Assembly (NCBI RefSeq): GCF_003334305.1
Contig: NZ_QOWS01000042.1
Reading direction: 5' to 3' (one strand)
DNA: 12,912 bases
Source: Escherichia coli
GTDB lineage: Bacteria > Pseudomonadota > Gammaproteobacteria > Enterobacterales > Enterobacteriaceae
In this document: positions 1 to 12,727 of the stretch, one piece after another
Position numbering within the stretch: the stretch's first letter is position 1
How the letters are laid out: each line of letters begins with the position of its first letter
The notes under the pieces: model-generated
Told to the model about the DNA's origin: nothing
The model's input: the letters and a program-made list of their open reading frames with translations, nothing else
Database searches by the model: none
Program-made: the position numbers and the translations under genes

Positions 1-1125
1 CCAGCCTGTTGGCGGAGTGGCTGAAGGCCACGGAACAGGCACCCCAACCGGTAATGCAGAGCCTTCTCCTAAACCAAGGTATGTGAGAAGACCAGCTACA
101 TCCTTTCCACTCAAATTGGTAAGCGTATTGTCCAGCGGTTGTTTACCTGCCAGCGCATTAAGCATTGTCGTGGCAAAGTTCGGATCATTCCCCAGTGCCG
201 CCGCCAGTTCGTTCAGTGTATCCAGTGCAGCAGGTGCAGAACCCACCATTCCTGCAATCGCCGATTTCACAAAAGCCGTAGTGGCAATCTGTGTATTGTT
301 GACCGACTGCGCCGCCGTGGGGGCTGTTGGCGTTCCGGTGAGTGCCGGACTCGACAACGGTGCTTTTAGTGCCAGCGCATTGTTAATGGTGGTACTGAAA
401 TTCGGATCATTGTTAATGGCTGCGGCTATTTCTTTCAGCGTGTCCAGCGTGGCTGGCGCACCATTAATAAGGGCCGTCAGTGCCGCCTGTACAAACGCAG
501 TGGTCGCAACCTGCGTGGTATTATTCCCCGCCGCTGGCGTTGGCGCTTTGGGGGTTCCGGTAAATGTCGGGCTGGCTTTTGGCGCGTACTGTGAATGCGG
601 GTCCGGTGCGGCAAGATGTTTTGCCATCTGATCATCCGCGTAAACCTTCAGCTCCAGTGCCTTGTCATCCACATACTTGCGGGTTGCCAGCACTACAGCA
701 GGGTCGATTTTCAGGGTGATATTGTCCGTGCTGCTGGTAATCAGCACCATGCGCACGGTCTGAGTGCGCCCGCTACCTTCAGCCAGTTGCGGCTTATAGC
801 TTTCCGGGCAGTTGCCCACGGCAATCAATGCCCCGGACTCATCAAACAAGCCCACTTCACGTATCCACCAACCGCCCTCGTTTTCAGGGATCACCTGTTC
901 GGCAATAATCTGGCTGCTGTTCTGCGGGTCGATATAAAGCATATTCAGCGCAGCCCGGCGTTTCTCATTTACCAGTGCCGTCTGCTTTGCGTCCGGCGTT
1001 GGCAATACTCCACCGCCATCGCCCACCGCCATATGGGTAATTTTTAGCGGCACACCGAGCGCGGCGGCGCTGGCAAGTTTCGCCGCGCCAATATCCGTCA
1101 GCAGGGTATAAAATTTTGTGCTCAT
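1..1125 (-). CDS. H: Tail fibre protein, P2 gpH-like; N-terminal ~375 codons only, C-terminus lies beyond the window start
   Basis: Hand translation of the minus strand in the frame ending at 1125 is open to position 1. It begins MSTKFYTLLTDIGAAKLASAAALGVPLKITHMAVGDGGG, resembling the P2 gpH N-terminus as recalled, and contains ...NDPNFATTMLNALAGKQP. The ATG at 1125..1123 overlaps the stop of gene I (ATGA). Missing from the ORF track only because it has no stop inside the window. Confidence 0.85.
   Translation of the reverse strand, partial: MSTKFYTLLTDIGAAKLASAAALGVPLKITHMAVGDGGGVLPTPDAKQTALVNEKRRAALNMLYIDPQNSSQIIAEQVIPENEGGWWIREVGLFDESGALIAVGNCPESYKPQLAEGSGRTQTVRMVLITSSTDNITLKIDPAVVLATRKYVDDKALELKVYADDQMAKHLAAPDPHSQYAPKASPTFTGTPKAPTPAAGNNTTQVATTAFVQAALTALINGAPATLDTLKEIAAAINNDPNFSTTINNALALKAPLSSPALTGTPTAPTAAQSVNNTQIATTAFVKSAIAGMVGSAPAALDTLNELAAALGNDPNFATTMLNALAGKQPLDNTLTNLSGKDVAGLLTYLGLGEGSALPVGVPVPWPSATPPTGW
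142..585 (-). repeat. Tandem duplication of a ~74-codon (222 nt) tail-fibre repeat unit inside H (units 364..585 and 142..363), diverged copies
   Basis: Both units translate to SPxxTGTPxAPTxxxxNNTQ(I/V)ATTAFVxxAxxxxxxxAPAxLDTL(K/N)E(I/L)AAAxxNDPNF(S/A)TTxxNALAxK. Nucleotide similarity is visible, e.g. 'aaattcggatcatt' near 166-185 and 398-412. Confidence 0.7.
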
Positions 1126-1727
1126 GGATTCACTCTCATTGTGTCAATAACATGGACCGCCCCGCCTTCATGCGCGGTGCCACCGGAAATAATCGTTTCG
1201 TTGATATACGGATAGATCGTGATTTCTTCGCCAAGATAGCTGGCGGCTCCCACCCAATGCGGGCCGCTGGTCTGCAGATTGATGGACATGCCGATCATGT
1301 GGCGGCTACATGGTTTGGCATCGCTTATCAGTCGCTCAAGTTCCAGATAGGTATCTTCAGTGATGCCCTGGTCCTGCACGCCGATATCCAGGCGAAACGT
1401 GCCCGGTGTTTCTCCGGTCTGCCACCACTCAATAATGCGGATCAGGAATCCGAACGGCTCCACCACCCGCCGCACGGCACTGGTGGTCCCTTTATGCTGA
1501 TGAATATAAAAAGCATCCTTCACCACCTGGCGCTTGACGCTTTCAGTCCAGCCCTCGTCCCAGCGATCCACAGAGAACGCCCAGGCGAGATAAGGCAGGA
1601 AACTGACCGGACAGGTTGCCGGATTCCACAAGTCACGAAGCGGCACCTGCAGATCAGAAATCCCGCTGCAGGTTTGCGCCAGTCGGCGCTCCAGTGGTGT
1701 TGAACCCGGTGGCAGCAGACTATTCAT
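1122..1727 (-). CDS. I: Baseplate assembly protein, P2 gpI-like
   Basis: 201-aa ORF with ATG at 1727..1725; motifs such as WNPxTCPxxxLPxLAWAFSVDRWDExW and PGTFRLDIGV resemble P2 gpI as recalled. Stop TGA (1124..1122) overlaps the H start. Confidence 0.85.
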   Translation of the reverse strand: MNSLLPPGSTPLERRLAQTCSGISDLQVPLRDLWNPATCPVSFLPYLAWAFSVDRWDEGWTESVKRQVVKDAFYIHQHKGTTSAVRRVVEPFGFLIRIIEWWQTGETPGTFRLDIGVQDQGITEDTYLELERLISDAKPCSRHMIGMSINLQTSGPHWVGAASYLGEEITIYPYINETIISGGTAHEGGAVHVIDTMRVNP

Positions 1728-2628
1728 CCGTTCCTCCGTTGGTTACGCTCCACTGCGTACATGATGCCGCCTGTGTTTTGTTCAGGACCACATCCGCCAG
1801 AGGAGAAGCCAGCTCCACACGCTGCACCCCCTCAACATGCAGGGCGGCAAAAATGGCGCTACGGCGAATATCCCGACCAAGACGCGTCTGACTGGCGATG
1901 TACTTCTGCAGGCTGGCTTTTGCCGCTGCCATTACCGGCTCTGCTTCCGGTCCAGGATAGAGAAAAATGGTGGCTTCCACGCGATACGGGATGATTTCTG
2001 CGCTGCGAACCGTAAGACGGTCAGCCACCGGGCGGACGTTCTCACTGTTCAGAGCTTTTTCCACCACGTCCAGCAGGTCTTTTTCTGCAGTTCCATCGCC
2101 TTCGCGGCTAAGGACAGTCAGCACCACCTCTGCAGGTGCCGGGCTGGTTGCACTGGCATCCGCCACCCGACCGTCGGCGCTTCGGGCATGAAATTCATAA
2201 GCTGCAGTTGGCCCCGCAACAGAAAGCCCTTCAAAGGCCGCAGGCACACGCAGGCGCAACGCTTCATCGCTTTCCATCACAGCTGCAACGGGCGGCACAG
2301 CATCATTATCAGCAGGCGTCACCGTCAGGCGTGTCACGTTGTAGTTGGCAGCGAGCTGGTCAAGATCGCCGCCCATCGCGTAAGCCACCATCACCGCCTG
2401 CGCGGCTTCGTTAATGCGCTGGCGCAGAAGCAACTCACGGTAAGCGTTCTCCTGCAACAATTTAGTGGCGGGTTCAGATTCCAGTTCCAGCGTGCGGATC
2501 ACTGCTTCCTGCTCATCTTTCGGATGAAGCGCCACAAATTCTGCCTTGCGTTCGGCAAGCAGCGTCTCAAAGTCCGGCACATCCACAATCTGCGGTGCAG
2601 GCAACTGCGAAAGGTCAATCACTGCCAT
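1720..2628 (-). CDS. J: Baseplate protein, P2 gpJ-like
   Basis: The ORF track extends to a GTG at 2667, but the ATG at 2628..2626 is preceded by AGGAG with a 6-nt spacer and gives 302 aa starting MAVIDLSQLPAPQIVDVPDFETLLAERKA, the length recalled for P2 gpJ. It overlaps the W stop. Confidence 0.85.
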   Translation of the reverse strand: MAVIDLSQLPAPQIVDVPDFETLLAERKAEFVALHPKDEQEAVIRTLELESEPATKLLQENAYRELLLRQRINEAAQAVMVAYAMGGDLDQLAANYNVTRLTVTPADNDAVPPVAAVMESDEALRLRVPAAFEGLSVAGPTAAYEFHARSADGRVADASATSPAPAEVVLTVLSREGDGTAEKDLLDVVEKALNSENVRPVADRLTVRSAEIIPYRVEATIFLYPGPEAEPVMAAAKASLQKYIASQTRLGRDIRRSAIFAALHVEGVQRVELASPLADVVLNKTQAASCTQWSVTNGGTDE

Positions 2629-2974
2629 TCTCTGCTCCTGTTGATACGGAAAGGGACACAGGCACACCGTTATTCCGCCGCCCGGTCAGCTCCACCACCA
2701 TTGAACCGTCAAAATTGCTGTTGATGGTGATGGAATCCAGCGTCAACCGTGGCTCCCAGCGACTCAGCGCCACATACACTGCCGACATGACCTGCAGGCG
2801 TAATGCCGGATTTTGTGGCTGATCTATCAGTGCCGACAGCAGGGAACCATATTCCCGGCGGGCAATACGGCTACCCTGCGGTGTCAGCAGAATGTCCCGC
2901 ACCGACTGGCGCAGATGATCAATATCAGTAATGACTTTGCCGCTGGTATTGTTCATCCCGCTATAAAGCGTCAT
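2615..2974 (-). CDS. W: Baseplate protein, P2 gpW-like (gp25-type)
   Basis: 119 aa starting MTLYSGMNNTSGKVITDIDHLRQSVRDILLTPQGSRIARREYGSLL, similar in length and sequence to P2 gpW as recalled; its ATG (2974..2972) overlaps the V stop (ATGA). Confidence 0.85.
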   Translation of the reverse strand: MTLYSGMNNTSGKVITDIDHLRQSVRDILLTPQGSRIARREYGSLLSALIDQPQNPALRLQVMSAVYVALSRWEPRLTLDSITINSNFDGSMVVELTGRRNNGVPVSLSVSTGAENGSD

Positions 2975-3549
2975 ATCGGGCCTCCGGTTGTATCGCCGCC
3001 TTTCAGGACGCCAGTATGCTGATGCGCATCAACCACGATCCCGTTAGAACTCATCGCTCCGCCGCCCTGGGTAACGCCACCATTGATCACCACTTCGCTG
3101 TTAATGCGCGTGCGGTCAGCCTCCAGTACAAACTCACTGGTTTTCATGGTGATGTTGTCAGCAGCCTCAATGACCATGGATTTGATGCCCCTGACATACC
3201 AGCGCCCGGTGGCGGGTTCGTATTCAAACCAGCCACCGTCAGGATGTTCTGTCACGCAGGCGTCCGCCGACGTCGACGGTGGTGCGAACTGATTCGAATA
3301 GACAGCGGGCAGCGCAAAGGCGGTTTCCAGATTGCCGCCCAGACTCAGCAGCACCACCTGCTCACCTTCCGATGGTCGCCACCATGTACGGGCATTCCCG
3401 GCACGCAGCGTCAGCCAGCTGATCCAGTTGGTTTCAAGCTCGCCCGTTTTCACCCGGCAAAGCCAGTTTTCCCTGTCCACTTCGGTGACTACCCCTGTGC
3501 GGATCAGGTTGGTGATAAGGCGCATGATTTCGGTTAATTGTGCGTTCAT
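2971..3549 (-). CDS. V: Baseplate spike/hub protein, P2 gpV-like
   Basis: 192 aa starting MNAQLTEIMRLITNLIRTGVVTEVD, with RTWWRPSEGEQV and a C-terminal ...HQHTGVLKGGDTTGGPI resembling P2 gpV as recalled; ATG at 3549..3547. Confidence 0.85.
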   Translation of the reverse strand: MNAQLTEIMRLITNLIRTGVVTEVDRENWLCRVKTGELETNWISWLTLRAGNARTWWRPSEGEQVVLLSLGGNLETAFALPAVYSNQFAPPSTSADACVTEHPDGGWFEYEPATGRWYVRGIKSMVIEAADNITMKTSEFVLEADRTRINSEVVINGGVTQGGGAMSSNGIVVDAHQHTGVLKGGDTTGGPI

Positions 3550-3595
3550 AGGGAAAGGTTGCCATCAGGGGAAGAAAGGCGGCAGTGCTGCAACT

Positions 3596-3613
3596 TGTAT
3601 CAGTGCTGATACA
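3596..3613 (-). promoter_or_regulatory. Candidate late-promoter activator site (Ogr/Delta-type TGT-N12-ACA dyad) upstream of V
   Basis: Sequence TGTATCAGTGCTGATACA, part of the perfect palindrome TTGTATCAG-TG-CTGATACAA, lies between the S stop (3618) and the V start (3549). It matches the TGT-N12-ACA consensus of P2/P4 late promoters and sits where the P2 V promoter is expected. Confidence 0.5.
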
Positions 3614-3617
3614 AAGA

Positions 3618-4064
3618 TCACCCCGCCAGCCATTGCAGAATCATGTCGCGGGTCATTGCCTCAACATCATCATTTACACCCAGAAGGCGACGCTCTGCGT
3701 AACGCACCTCCGGTCCCTTACGACTGACGCGATCTCGCAGGCCGTAATGGTGAACGCGGGCAATGCGCTGCACCTTGCCTTCAAACTGCACGCTGGCAGA
3801 GTCGGTGCTGGCGGCAGTTTTCAGGTATTTTGTGGTGCGCAGCTTTGCAAACATCTGACGTTTGATGCGCCCCTTCTTGCTGCGTGCTGTTACCCTGCGC
3901 GGTTCATAACTGCTGCCATCTGGATTGCGCTGCATCCTGATATTCTGCTGCTGTGTCCGGCGCAGTTCCTGCGCCAGCTGGCGCATCATGCGGCTTCTCG
4001 TGGCTGGTTCCAGATTCGCCAGCAAGGCACTCAGCCAGTCGTCCACCTTCTGCAGTTCAGCCAC
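3618..4064 (-). CDS. S: Tail completion protein, P2 gpS-like
   Basis: 148-aa ORF in the P2-equivalent position between R and V. The only start in frame is GTG at 4064..4062, preceded by GGTGA, and it overlaps the 3' end of R by 8 nt. Called mainly on synteny and size. Confidence 0.75.
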   Translation of the reverse strand: MAELQKVDDWLSALLANLEPATRSRMMRQLAQELRRTQQQNIRMQRNPDGSSYEPRRVTARSKKGRIKRQMFAKLRTTKYLKTAASTDSASVQFEGKVQRIARVHHYGLRDRVSRKGPEVRYAERRLLGVNDDVEAMTRDMILQWLAG

Positions 4065-8591: not shown

Positions 8592-9425
8592 TCAGCAATT
8601 GGTCAGAGTGTCAGCGGGGGCGTTACCGCCTGTTGCACGCTGGCGGTAGTCCTGGCGGCTGTCTTCATGACTCAGCTTATTCACCAGTTCGTTAAAGGCG
8701 GTCTGCTGTGCCTGCAGGGCAGTCTCCAGCTCAGACAGACGTTCTTCCTGCTCAGACAGGGATTTTTCGGTGCGTGCGCTCAGGTTTTGCTGCTCAGTGG
8801 CGACCAGCTCCACGGCCTTATGCACATCAGAGAACCGGGCATCGTCGGACTGCTCTTTTTTGGTAAACAGCGCCGTGACACGGGCAAACAGGGACGGTTT
8901 GTCCTCCTGGATTTCTTCCAGTTCGATCACTGTTTCCTCTGCGGCGGTAAAGAGATTGGCGGGATTCTGCTTGCGGTTTGCCAGCGGGTTATGGGCTGCA
9001 CTGGCGCTGAATGTCAGCATTTCCGTACCCAAACTGGCAGGGTCATCAGTGGCAGCCAGGCCGACCAGGTAGGCTTTGCCCGTATCAGCGAACTTCGGGC
9101 TGACTTCCATAGAGGTGAATAATTTCTGGCCTTTTTTCACCAATTCCACCAGGGACTCCGTTGGCTCAACGTCGGCATACAGCGCCATCTTGCCTGCCAG
9201 CGGGCCTTCCGTGATTTCTTCAGCAAACAGCGCCGTCACCTTGCCGTAACGGTTAAAGGTGCTGTCCGGGAGATAAGACTTGATGTGCTCAAGGTTAATC
9301 AGCGCGGTATACACCGCCGGGTTGTAGCTGGCTGCCATCTGTTCCAGCCATTCACGCTGGATTTCGCGTCCGTCGGTGGTGGCACCTTCCACCCCGATGC
9401 GAAAACGCTTTGCTTTCACTGTCAT
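8592..9425 (-). CDS. O: Capsid scaffolding protein, P2 gpO-like
   Basis: 277 aa starting MTVKAKRFRIGVEGATTDGREIQREWLEQMAASYNP, the same size class as P2 gpO (~284 aa); ATG at 9425..9423 is preceded by GGAG. Confidence 0.9.
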   Translation of the reverse strand: MTVKAKRFRIGVEGATTDGREIQREWLEQMAASYNPAVYTALINLEHIKSYLPDSTFNRYGKVTALFAEEITEGPLAGKMALYADVEPTESLVELVKKGQKLFTSMEVSPKFADTGKAYLVGLAATDDPASLGTEMLTFSASAAHNPLANRKQNPANLFTAAEETVIELEEIQEDKPSLFARVTALFTKKEQSDDARFSDVHKAVELVATEQQNLSARTEKSLSEQEERLSELETALQAQQTAFNELVNKLSHEDSRQDYRQRATGGNAPADTLTNC

Positions 9426-9502: not shown

Positions 9503-9520
9503 TTGTACCGACAACCACAC
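9503..9520. promoter_or_regulatory. Candidate late-promoter activator site (TGT-N12-ACA) in the O/P divergent intergenic region
   Basis: TGTACCGACAACCACACA is the only TGT-N12-ACA match in the 142-bp region between the O start (9425) and the P start (9568), where the P2 divergent late promoters for P and O are expected. Confidence 0.45.
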
Positions 9521-9567
9521 AAACCGCAGGCGGGGAAAGCCTTCATTCAAGGCTGTAGGTTTGTGCC

Positions 9568-11334
9568 ATGAACACCACACTGACACCCGCAGATCTCGAT
9601 CCCCGTCGGCAGGCCATGCTGCTGTACTTTCAGGGATACCGCGTAGCCCGCATTGCTGAAATGCTGGGCGAGAAAGTTGCAACCGTTCACAGCTGGAAGA
9701 AACGCGACAAGTGGGGTGACTATGGGCCGCTGGATCAGATGCAGCTCACCACCGCCGCACGTTACTGCCAGCTCATTATGAAGGAGCACAAAGAAGGGAA
9801 AGATTTCAAAGAAATTGACCTGCTGGCGCGCCAGTCGGAGCGCCACGCGCGGATCGGCAAGTTTAACAATGGCGGCAACGAAGCCGACTTAAACCCTAAC
9901 GTCGCCAACCGCAACAAAGGCCCGCGCCGTCAGCCGGAAAAGAATGTTTTCACCGATGAACAGATAGAGAAACTGGAAGAAATCTTCCATTCCTCCATGT
10001 TCAACTACCAGCGCCACTGGTGGGAAGCCGGAAAAACCAACCGCATCCGCAACCTGCTGAAGTCACGCCAGATCGGCGCGACCTTTTACTTTGCCCGTGA
10101 AGCCCTGATTGACGCCCTGCTTACCGGACGTAACCAGATTTTCCTTTCTGCCAGTAAGGCACAGGCTCACGTCTTTAAGCAGTACATCATCGACTTCGCC
10201 AAAGAAGTCGAGGTGGAGCTGAAAGGCGATCCGATGGTGCTTCCTAACGGGGCCACGCTTTACTTCCTCGGCACCAATGCCCGCACGGCGCAGAGTTACC
10301 ACGGCAACCTGTATCTGGATGAATATTTCTGGATACCGAAATTCCAGGAGTTGCGCAAAGTGGCTTCCGGTATGGCTATTCACAAGAAATGGCGACAAAC
10401 CTATTTTTCCACGCCATCCAGCCTGACCCACAGTGCTTATCCGTTCTGGTCCGGTGCGCTGTTCAACCGTGGACGCAACAAAGCTGACAAGGTGGACATC
10501 GACCTGTCCCACAGCAATCTGGCCCCCGGCCTGCTGTGCGCAGACGGGCAATACCGCCAGATAGTCACCGTGGAAGATGCGGTGCGCGGCGGCTGTAACC
10601 TGTTCGACCTCGACCAGCTGCGCATGGAGTACAGCCCGGACGAATACCAGAACCTGCTGATGTGCGAGTTCGTGGACGATCTCGCGTCCGTGTTCCCGCT
10701 CAGCGAACTGCAGGCGTGCATGGTGGACAGCTGGGAAGTCTGGACCGACTTTCATGCACTGGCCCTGCGCCCGTTTGGCTGGCGCGAAGTGTGGATCGGT
10801 TATGACCCGGCAAAAGGTACGCAGAACGGCGACAGTGCCGGATGCGTGGTGGTGGCTCCGCCAGCCGTGCCGGGTGGTAAGTTCCGCATTCTTGAGCGTC
10901 ACCAGTGGCGCGGGATGGACTTCCGCGCCCAGGCTGACGCCATCAAAAAACTGACCGAACAGTATAACGTGACCTATATCGGTATCGACTCGACCGGCGT
11001 CGGTCACGGGGTTTACGAGAACGTGAAAGCGTTTTTTCCTGCTGTCCGGGAGTTTGTCTATAACCCCAACGTTAAAAACGCCCTGGTACTCAAGGCCTAC
11101 GACATTATCAGCCACCGCCGTCTGGAGTTTGACGCCGGGCACACCGACATTGCGCAGTCATTTATGGCAATCCGTCGCGCTACCACTGCCAGTGGCAACC
11201 GCCCGACCTATGAAGCCAGCCGCAGCGAAGAAGCCAGCCATGCCGATCTGGCCTGGGCAACAATGCACGCACTGTTTAACGAACCGCTGCAGGGCGAGTC
11301 CGCCAATACCAGCAATATTGTGGAGATTTTTTGA
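9568..11334 (+). CDS. P: Terminase large (ATPase) subunit, P2 gpP-like
   Basis: 588 aa (P2 gpP is ~590) starting MNTTLTPADLDPRRQAMLLYFQGYRVARIAEMLGEK. It diverges from O and is followed by Q with a TGATG stop/start overlap. Confidence 0.9.
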   Translation: MNTTLTPADLDPRRQAMLLYFQGYRVARIAEMLGEKVATVHSWKKRDKWGDYGPLDQMQLTTAARYCQLIMKEHKEGKDFKEIDLLARQSERHARIGKFNNGGNEADLNPNVANRNKGPRRQPEKNVFTDEQIEKLEEIFHSSMFNYQRHWWEAGKTNRIRNLLKSRQIGATFYFAREALIDALLTGRNQIFLSASKAQAHVFKQYIIDFAKEVEVELKGDPMVLPNGATLYFLGTNARTAQSYHGNLYLDEYFWIPKFQELRKVASGMAIHKKWRQTYFSTPSSLTHSAYPFWSGALFNRGRNKADKVDIDLSHSNLAPGLLCADGQYRQIVTVEDAVRGGCNLFDLDQLRMEYSPDEYQNLLMCEFVDDLASVFPLSELQACMVDSWEVWTDFHALALRPFGWREVWIGYDPAKGTQNGDSAGCVVVAPPAVPGGKFRILERHQWRGMDFRAQADAIKKLTEQYNVTYIGIDSTGVGHGVYENVKAFFPAVREFVYNPNVKNALVLKAYDIISHRRLEFDAGHTDIAQSFMAIRRATTASGNRPTYEASRSEEASHADLAWATMHALFNEPLQGESANTSNIVEIF

Positions 11335-12368
11335 TGGGAAAGAGTAAGAAGAACCGCGCTGCGTCGACGAAACAGATCCAGCATAAAAGCCAGACTTCAG
11401 CCGAAGCATTCAGCTTCGGTGATCCCGTTCCTGTTCTGGACCGCCGCGAACTGCTGGACTATGTGGAATGCGTACAGATGGATCGTTGGTACGAGCCGCC
11501 TGTGAGTTTCGACGGACTGGCGCGAACCTTCCGCGCCGCCGTGCATCACAGCTCACCGATTGCAGTGAAGTGCAACATTCTGACCAGCACCTACATCCCT
11601 CACCCGCTGCTCAGCCAGCAGGCTTTTTCGCGTTTTGTACAGGACTATCTGGTTTTTGGTAACGCCTACCTGGAGAAACGCACAAACCGCTTCGGTGAAG
11701 TTATCGCCCTTGAGCCTGCACTGGCAAAATACACCCGACGCGGGTTAGACCTTGATACCTACTGGTTTGTGCAATACGGCATGACTACGCAGCCGTATCA
11801 GTTCACGAAAGGCAACATTTTTCATCTGATGGAACCGGACATCAACCAGGAGATCTACGGCCTGCCTGGTTATCTTTCTGCCATTCCGTCAGCTCTGCTC
11901 AACGAGTCCGCCACGCTGTTCCGCCGCAAGTATTACATTAACGGCAGTCATGCAGGCTTCATCATGTACATGACCGATGCAGCGCAGAACCAGGAGGATG
12001 TGAACAACCTCCGCAACGCGATGAAAAGCGCCAAAGGTCCTGGTAACTTCCGTAACCTGTTTATGTACTCGCCTAACGGTAAAAAGGACGGGCTTCAGAT
12101 TATCCCGTTGTCAGAAGTGGCGGCGAAGGATGAGTTCCTGAATATCAAGAACGTGAGCCGGGACGACATGATGGCGGCGCATCGTGTGCCGCCACAAATG
12201 ATGGGGATAATGCCTAATAATGTCGGGGGGTTTGGGGATGTGGAGAAGGCCAGTCGCGTATTTGTACGTAATGAATTAACGCCCTTGCAAAAAAGGCTAC
12301 AAGAGCTGAACGACTGGCTGGGCGAAGAAGTGATTAAATTTACGCCCTATATTCTTTCAGAAGAATAA
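11334..12368 (+). CDS. Q: Portal protein, P2 gpQ-like
   Basis: ATG at 11334 (the ORF-track TTG at 11331 is one codon upstream) gives 344 aa, the length recalled for P2 gpQ, starting MGKSKKNRAASTKQ. Its start overlaps the P stop. Confidence 0.9.
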   Translation: MGKSKKNRAASTKQIQHKSQTSAEAFSFGDPVPVLDRRELLDYVECVQMDRWYEPPVSFDGLARTFRAAVHHSSPIAVKCNILTSTYIPHPLLSQQAFSRFVQDYLVFGNAYLEKRTNRFGEVIALEPALAKYTRRGLDLDTYWFVQYGMTTQPYQFTKGNIFHLMEPDINQEIYGLPGYLSAIPSALLNESATLFRRKYYINGSHAGFIMYMTDAAQNQEDVNNLRNAMKSAKGPGNFRNLFMYSPNGKKDGLQIIPLSEVAAKDEFLNIKNVSRDDMMAAHRVPPQMMGIMPNNVGGFGDVEKASRVFVRNELTPLQKRLQELNDWLGEEVIKFTPYILSEE

Positions 12369-12376
12369 TTCCGAAC

Positions 12377-12727
12377 TTATTTGTTTCTTCTTTGTTCACG
12401 CCTTGTCTTGGCTTCGATAAGGCGTTGAGGTTCAGTGTAAAGCCGTTCTAAAAAAAGATAGGTAAAATCTTCAAGATCCTCAGCAGCAGCTTTATCCAAA
12501 ATACCTTCATGCGCTCCATCATTTCCGTCATCTTTAACGCATTCAGCTAGTTCCCTTAAAGCTTCAGGCAGTAGATGATTATCAAATAACCACTCCATTC
12601 TTAACCCTAGGCTTCTCCTTATTTTTTGCGCAGGCCCTTGCTCCCCATCAGGAAGAAGTCCTTTTGTGGCATAATCAAGGCAAAGCCTAAACATGGTTGC
12701 TGCTGCATTATAACAACCTATAGCCAA
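12377..12727 (-). CDS. Hypothetical small acidic protein in low-GC cargo next to the portal gene; possibly HEPN/DUF4145-like (speculative)
   Basis: 116-codon ORF in ~40-45% GC DNA, convergent with Q (stops 8 bp apart). The TTG at 12727 is preceded by GAGGAAGGGG with an 8-nt spacer; the first ATG is at 12694. No homologue recognised with confidence; the motif GNDGAHEG and a helical, acidic composition are the only hints. Confidence 0.5.
   Translation of the reverse strand: MAIGCYNAAATMFRLCLDYATKGLLPDGEQGPAQKIRRSLGLRMEWLFDNHLLPEALRELAECVKDDGNDGAHEGILDKAAAEDLEDFTYLFLERLYTEPQRLIEAKTRREQRRNK

Follow-up and report, generated by a model that had tools for sequence, protein, structure and literature searches.

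The DNA analysed here (the window) is a 12,912-nt stretch of Escherichia coli (NCBI RefSeq assembly GCF_003334305.1, contig NZ_QOWS01000042.1). It contains a P2-like prophage's late region, in which most genes run on the minus strand, and is 100% identical to positions 3595888–3608799 of E. coli A7 (NZ_CP028767.1). A 50-kb stretch of A7 (locus L086) served as the source locus for annotation and motif counts; gene coordinates in the window are the RefSeq L086 coordinates minus 18500, combined with the list of open reading frames. The genes are arranged as follows.

4064..3618, minus strand: S (tail completion / virion morphogenesis), which closes the O operon, with its TGA stop codon at 3620..3618
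3549..2971, minus strand: V (baseplate assembly protein V / spike, 192 aa), which heads its operon
2974..2615, minus strand: W, downstream of V (RefSeq)
2628..1720, minus strand: J, downstream of V (RefSeq)
1727..1122, minus strand: I, downstream of V (RefSeq)
from 1125 and off the left end of the window, minus strand: H, downstream of V (RefSeq)
9425..8592, minus strand: O (RefSeq and the list of open reading frames)
9568..11334, plus strand: P (terminase large subunit)
11334..12368, plus strand: Q (portal gene)

RefSeq calls the same adjacent pair, S and V, in the identical source sequence, and the start and stop codons of neighbouring genes overlap throughout the V-W-J-I-H unit. That S and V lie on the minus strand had been left unsaid in the first-pass annotation of this DNA. 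The features of interest fall in the short gap between them.

3550–3617: the S–V gap, 68 nt, between the minus-strand genes S and V
3595..3614: an activator-type dyad, TTGT-N12-ACAA, reading TTGTATCAGTGCTGATACAA on the plus strand and TTGTATCAG-CA-CTGATACAA on the minus strand
3556..3561, minus strand: predicted −10 hexamer CAACCT, with A−11 at 3560 and T−7 at 3556, ending 6 nt before the ATG
3549, minus strand: predicted transcription start (+1), on the A of the V ATG (3549..3547), placed from the −10 register

The dyad begins 3 bp beyond the S stop codon. It had been described as a perfect 20-bp palindrome; the sequence is present, but the perfect part consists of two 9-bp arms, TTGTATCAG and CTGATACAA (repeat I5), around a two-base centre (TG on the plus strand, CA on the minus strand) that is not self-complementary, leaving 18 of the 20 positions symmetric. 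Within the dyad, and inside the 68-bp gap as had been claimed, the activator motif of P2/P4 late promoters, TGT-N12-ACA, is matched at 3596–3613 (TGTATCAGTGCTGATACA). With its centre at 3604.5, the dyad stands 55.5 bp from the first base of the V start codon, which bears out the earlier estimate of about 55 bp. Four late promoters of P2, namely PP, PO, PV and PF, share TGT-N12-ACA and depend on the activator Ogr, according to PMC3931495.

Taken by itself, the motif carries little weight. TGT-N12-ACA occurs four times in the window against 3.4 expected, and four or more copies were found in 86 of 200 shuffles; we therefore rejected the motif alone as evidence. Short inverted repeats are likewise common, numbering 36 in the window, with the 9-bp repeat of the dyad being one of them. 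Both counts would suit a chance palindrome in a short spacer, with V expressed solely by read-through from PO. So would a scan of the S–V interval, which found no convincing terminator, so that V-W-J-I-H RNA might also come from transcripts running on from PO. On such RNA, however, V would have an internal ATG lacking a Shine-Dalgarno sequence for internal initiation.

What makes the dyad non-random is its placement and its conservation, rather than the motif or the repeat alone. As to placement, the 50-kb source locus has exactly three copies of the stricter form TTGT-N12-ACAA, all of them in late-promoter gaps: upstream of the tail-sheath gene (the F gap), in the S–V gap and in the divergent O/P gap. 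In shuffles of the 21.8-kb late region the mean count was 0.2, and the probability of at least three copies was 0.001. By the P2 record, these gaps coincide with the P2 late promoters PF, PV and PO/PP. The same three-site pattern is seen in Escherichia phage 500465-1; Fels-2 has the strict motif at PV and at PO/PP, plus one more copy at 30688, whereas its PF carries TGT-N12-ACA only, the strict form being absent.

As to conservation, relatives were collected by scanning viral contigs with V-protein alignment. The best 80 loci, in which V is 86–100% identical, yielded 79 usable ones and 45 distinct sequences upstream of V, which fell into 26 groups of less than 60% identity over −75 to −1. The first-pass annotation had named as damaging to its reading the case that homologous phages lack the dyad at this position; TGT-N12-ACA is instead present in all 26 upstream groups from these best 80 loci. 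The centre of the site is 55.5 bp from the V start in 14 groups, 56.5 bp in six, 54.5 bp in three and 57.5 bp in one, and in the remaining two it lies 68.5 or 69.5 bp away. TGT and ACA are invariant here by selection of the matches, and the flanking bases of the strict form follow closely, with the outer T in 25/26 groups and the outer A in 22/26. We note that the 26 sequences may share ancestry at the site itself, so that they demonstrate selection and not 26 independent origins.

Across the wider family the picture is mixed. The motif is found in a Dagavirus and an Elveevirus; P2, on the other hand, has TGT-N11-ACA, and phages 186 and PSP3 retain the TGT half only, which means that the motif is not strictly required across the family. 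Nevertheless, the motif and its distance to the ATG have been kept in 26 upstream sequences that are otherwise unrelated. This conservation appears to exclude a chance palindrome, a reading that is strongly disfavoured and that we consider hardly credible.

The same alignment bears on whether the dyad instead works as an RNA or DNA hairpin that ends the O-operon message, be it a terminator, an attenuator or a 3′-end stabiliser. Its position 3 bp past the S stop codon would suit such a role, its RNA form gives a predicted 9-bp stem, and P2 has a terminator after S. Yet no T-run follows the dyad on either strand, so that the usual criterion for Rho-independent termination, a G+C-rich stem-loop followed by a T-run, does not describe it; the terminator scan does not call the dyad and gives one weak match inside S (3641..3620), with 0.5 expected by chance. 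The 101-nt region folds like its shuffles (z = −0.45), and no Rfam family matches the dyad or any other part of the window. Among the 26 variants there is no covariation at the inner 12 positions, the complementarity of pairs 4–9 equals the column-shuffle expectation, and most variants have only four to six symmetric bases. Close relatives also carry uncompensated arm changes (TGTACCAG in L027, L034 and L039, and a chimeric site in L084). Given the missing T-run, the unremarkable folding, the lack of covariation and the uncompensated changes, we rejected the hairpin or terminator, and regard it as very improbable.

Having set these readings aside, we return to the dyad as a late-promoter activator site. 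Anchoring the 26 groups on the TGT revealed, between the dyad and the ATG, two conserved columns and no others: an A at +54 (22/26) and a T at +58 (20/26). The remaining conservation sits in the V start codon and the first codons of V. Because the two columns are four bases apart, as are the −11 and −7 positions of a −10 element, +1 was placed on 3549. The resulting predicted −10, CAACCT, is very weak, and its assignment rests on these two columns. The −35 position reads TGCCGC, a 1/6 match, and a scan of positions 3300–3900 found no sigma-70 consensus promoter, which fits an activator-dependent promoter. With +1 predicted at 3549 from A−11/T−7, the dyad centre falls at −55.5, the same figure as obtained from the P2 annotation.

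A check anchored on the ATG gave a consistent result. In the 24 sequences with short spacing, the A−11/T−7 pair predicts a leader of 0 nt in 22 and of 1 nt in the other two; the −10 thus tracks the ATG even when the activator site is one base nearer or further. All 24 short-spacing variants, drawn from the best 80 loci, start with ATG, and in most of them a Shine-Dalgarno sequence is unconvincing. GUG starts work poorly without a leader in E. coli (PMC4633059). The two groups with long spacing differ in several respects. In L064 the site centre is 69.5 bp from the start, the Shine-Dalgarno sequence is GGGGGGAAGG, the start codon is GTG and the predicted leader is about 14 nt; in L079 the centre is 68.5 bp from an ATG, preceded by a GGAG Shine-Dalgarno sequence and a predicted leader of about 13 nt. 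With the site 13–14 bp further off, these two loci look like natural leadered variants, and hence a natural control, of the same promoter.

P2 provides the reference. Its Ogr-dependent PV (Christie & Calendar 1985; annotated in the P2 record, NC_001895) likewise sits immediately before V, and the ends of its dyad are TTGT and ACAA. Comparison with the P2 V promoter, for which the first-pass annotation had suggested an alignment as a check, shows a matching layout: the annotated P2 site (10239–10266) has its centre 55.5 bp from the V ATG (56.5 bp for the TGT..ACA element itself), and both promoters have a CAAyCT −10 (CAATCT in P2, CAACCT here), no −35 and no Shine-Dalgarno sequence. Several differences should be mentioned. 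First, the P2 dyad (10243–10259) is TGT-N11-ACA with four symmetric bases, as opposed to the canonical N12 with 9-bp arms here; the putative PV of this prophage would thus be nearer to the TGT-N12-ACA consensus than P2's own. Second, S and V are separated in P2 by a terminator and the divergent gene orf30; in the window, 3 bp lie between the S stop codon and the dyad. Third, the −10 is separated from the ATG by 7 nt in P2 and 6 nt here.

The P2 comparison also settles a puzzle raised by the first-pass annotation, which noted that a site at −55 would imply a very short leader and concluded that this phage must have another spacing or else the V start had been set wrongly. Neither proposal held up. 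In the P2 record the V-operon start, 10308, is the first base of the V coding sequence, giving a leaderless mRNA, with the site centre 55.5 bp upstream. The V protein begins with an invariant Met-Asn in four phages (the window's prophage, Fels-2, P2 and 186), and in relatives that carry cargo upstream of V the similarity on the upstream side ends exactly at the V ATG; a misplaced start was rejected on both counts. It follows from the P2 start on the first base of V and from the −55.5 geometry that the spacing is normal and the V start correct. For annotation, this means that the start at 3549 is right and that the absent ribosome-binding site is expected and no error. Indeed, the anti-Shine-Dalgarno pairing of V (−1.8 kcal/mol) is the weakest among the 17 gene starts in the window.

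Relatives closer than P2 share the arrangement in still greater detail. Phages 500465-1 (Wadgaonvirus), Fels-2 (Felsduovirus), Yersinia MLG42 (Elveevirus) and Klebsiella ST13-OXA48phi12.1 (Dagavirus) all have the same 68-bp S–V gap, with TGT-N12-ACA centred 55.5–56.5 bp from the ATG and a putative GCAAyCT −10 region. The closest sequenced phage, 500465-1, shares 98.4% identity across the 1.3-kb query, which runs from the W start to the R end and includes S and V, and SopEPhi (Felsduovirus) matches the region at 83.6%. The inner 12 bp of the site vary among these phages, reading TTGTGCCACTGCTGGCACAA in Fels-2. Phage 186, with its B-dependent late promoters (p12/pV, pJ; the O–orf32 gap), resembles the window's prophage in having a homologous activator (B), a 69-bp gap before its V homologue, the same ATG context and no Shine-Dalgarno sequence; unlike here, 186 (9660–9728) and PSP3 (9664–9731) have CGG in place of ACA, and the 186 record annotates no B site in the gap before the V homologue. 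The P2-like Ralstonia phages phiRSA1 and phiRSY1 have an Ogr homologue and a dyad before each late operon, 50–90 bp from the start; their dyads are TGTTGT-N13-ACAACA, with longer half-sites and other spacing (PMC5694545).

The prophage also encodes a suitable activator. Beside gene D, outside the window (L086 9057–9275), lies a gene for a 72-aa zinc-finger protein of the Ogr/Delta type. The protein matches the Pfam family Ogr_Delta (PF04606) with E = 5.9e-22 and carries the motif CX2C-X22-CX4C; its identity to P2 Ogr is 55%, and to the homologue in Fels-2 70%. As a side observation, a gene with a reverse-transcriptase domain sits beside ogr, also outside the window (L086 7880–9275 region).

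Alternatively, the dyad might be bound by some regulator other than the Ogr-family activator and act as its operator; candidates are a repressor, a Cox/Apl-type protein or a host factor. A 20-bp span would suit many dimeric regulators, and the 9-bp arms exceed the conserved 4-bp half-sites of the Ogr family. The details speak otherwise: the conserved bases are exactly the published Ogr/Delta consensus, the three strict copies in 50 kb are confined to the three late-promoter gaps, the fixed distance to the −10 and the ATG is a need of an activator site and not of an operator, and in the P2 record the corresponding position is labelled as the pV activator site. We consider an operator for another protein improbable.

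Thus, in this prophage of the P2-like type (Wadgaonvirus / Fels-2-like), the dyad is very probably the activator site of the late promoter PV, driven by an Ogr-family activator and giving a leaderless V message. The claim of the first-pass annotation that an Ogr/Delta-type site marks the start of the V-W-J-I-H unit finds comparative support in the motif, the three gaps, the Ogr gene and the conserved position. The sequence, its placement and conservation, the Ogr gene and the lack of a Shine-Dalgarno sequence and of a −35 are direct observations. From the mapped start of the homologous P2 promoter, and from the conserved −10 register, we infer the following course of events, including activator binding, activator dependence, leaderless translation and the exact point of initiation. 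The TTGT-N12-ACAA dyad at 3595–3614 would be bound by the Ogr/B/Delta-family zinc-finger protein that the prophage itself encodes; centred at about −55.5, this protein would aid host sigma-70 RNA polymerase in using a core promoter that lacks a −35 and has a weak −10 (CAACCT, 3561..3556). Transcription would begin on the first base of the V start codon (3549) or one base from it; with the start there, the V-W-J-I-H message would be leaderless. V would be translated from a 5′-terminal AUG with no Shine-Dalgarno sequence, and W, J, I and H would follow via the overlapping start and stop codons.

By all its sequence-level features, the dyad region appears to be a clear orthologue of the P2 PV promoter, of the Ogr/B/Delta late-promoter class, in which the activator binds the element and transcription depends on it and on the RNA polymerase alpha subunit. 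This is an already-understood type of phage promoter: P2 PV and its leaderless message have been known since 1985, and the present case adds little new biology. PMC4633059 counts P2, alongside lambda and Tn1721, as one of the small number of leaderless cases analysed in E. coli and refers to Christie & Calendar 1985; our literature search found no text beyond PMC4633059 that names P2 gene V as leaderless. Lambda cI (transcribed from PRM) and Tn1721 tetR are similar to the arrangement predicted here in having a 5′-terminal AUG, no Shine-Dalgarno sequence and a −10 a few bases before the start (PMC4633059). They differ in their promoters and regulators and are regulator genes, whereas here a five-gene structural operon is predicted to be leaderless.

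Whether PV fires in strain A7 is a separate matter. In the annotation of L086 30877–49912, no integrase, repressor or replication genes are found within the 18 kb after Q and the IS3 element. For this reason the A7 prophage is probably defective, its early region having seemingly been lost, and PV may consequently fire rarely or never there. The prophage adjoins ssrA and still has intact ogr and late genes. Beyond Q lie a DUF4145 gene (12377–12727, minus strand) and then the IS3 element, from about 12866.

The divergent O/P gap offers a parallel to the S–V gap, with the following features.

9503..9522: a second activator-type site, TTGTACCGACAACCACACAA, in the divergent O/P gap, predicted to be shared by PO (leftward) and PP (rightward)
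9556..9561, plus strand: predicted PP −10, TAGGTT, 6 nt before the P ATG at 9568

The P2 record likewise annotates one shared site for pO and pP. The PP register is the same as that of PV, with the A at +54, the T at +58 and the ATG at +65 from the TGT, and this shared −10/ATG register predicts a leaderless mRNA for the terminase gene P in this phage group. Fels-2, SopEPhi and Klebsiella ST13-OXA48phi12.1 all show TATGTT, 6 nt and then the P ATG, with no Shine-Dalgarno sequence. In P2 and 186, unlike here, P has a 23-nt leader with a GAGG Shine-Dalgarno sequence. We know of no published report of a leaderless P in this phage group. A further TGT-N12-ACA match, TGTGCCATGAACACCACA at 9562–9579, overlaps the P start codon; it is probably due to chance, since Fels-2 has TGG for the TGT.

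The comparative set also shows what becomes of the S–V gap elsewhere. Among the 79 usable loci of the best 80, 45 have the same 68 bp and 34 hold 0.5–2.3 kb of unrelated DNA. These 34 inserts have 31–37% GC, come in at least 25 different forms and are mostly divergent from V; P2 orf30 sits at the same place. PADLOC matches in the cassettes include PtuA (Septu), AriA-like, AbiU, ApeA, PDC-S49, PDC-S31 and ThsA-like proteins. An earlier study describes hot spots for accessory and defence genes among the late genes of P2 (bioRxiv 10.64898/2026.02.27.708500), and the gap in the window is the empty state of such a defence/cargo hot spot. We also considered a reverse-strand sigma-70 promoter overlapping PV that might serve the divergent cargo; it was unsupported, a crude scan giving hits in 4/21 loci against 4.1 expected.

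Every cassette (L006–L081) carries its own TGT-N12-ACA and a −10 in register with the V ATG, the rest of the sequence being unrelated and AT-rich. The promoter, therefore, travels with each cassette or is rebuilt in it. Tentatively, we raise the possibility, to which we lean slightly less than to its opposite, that leaderless late-gene expression (V and P, with the register kept in every swapped cassette) is a conserved design of this phage group and no quirk of P2 V. If so, the exact register of promoter and ATG at V would constrain the defence cassettes, and each one swapped in satisfies it.

Two practical uses come out of the comparison. For P2-like prophages, late promoters may be sought by the rule TTGT-N12-ACAA, then 34 nt, then an A-N3-T −10. 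And the set, in which activator site, −10 and ATG stay in tight register while their surroundings are replaced, holds natural variants for the study of leaderless translation in E. coli, in the form of the two loci with a leader and Shine-Dalgarno sequence and of P as a predicted second leaderless gene.
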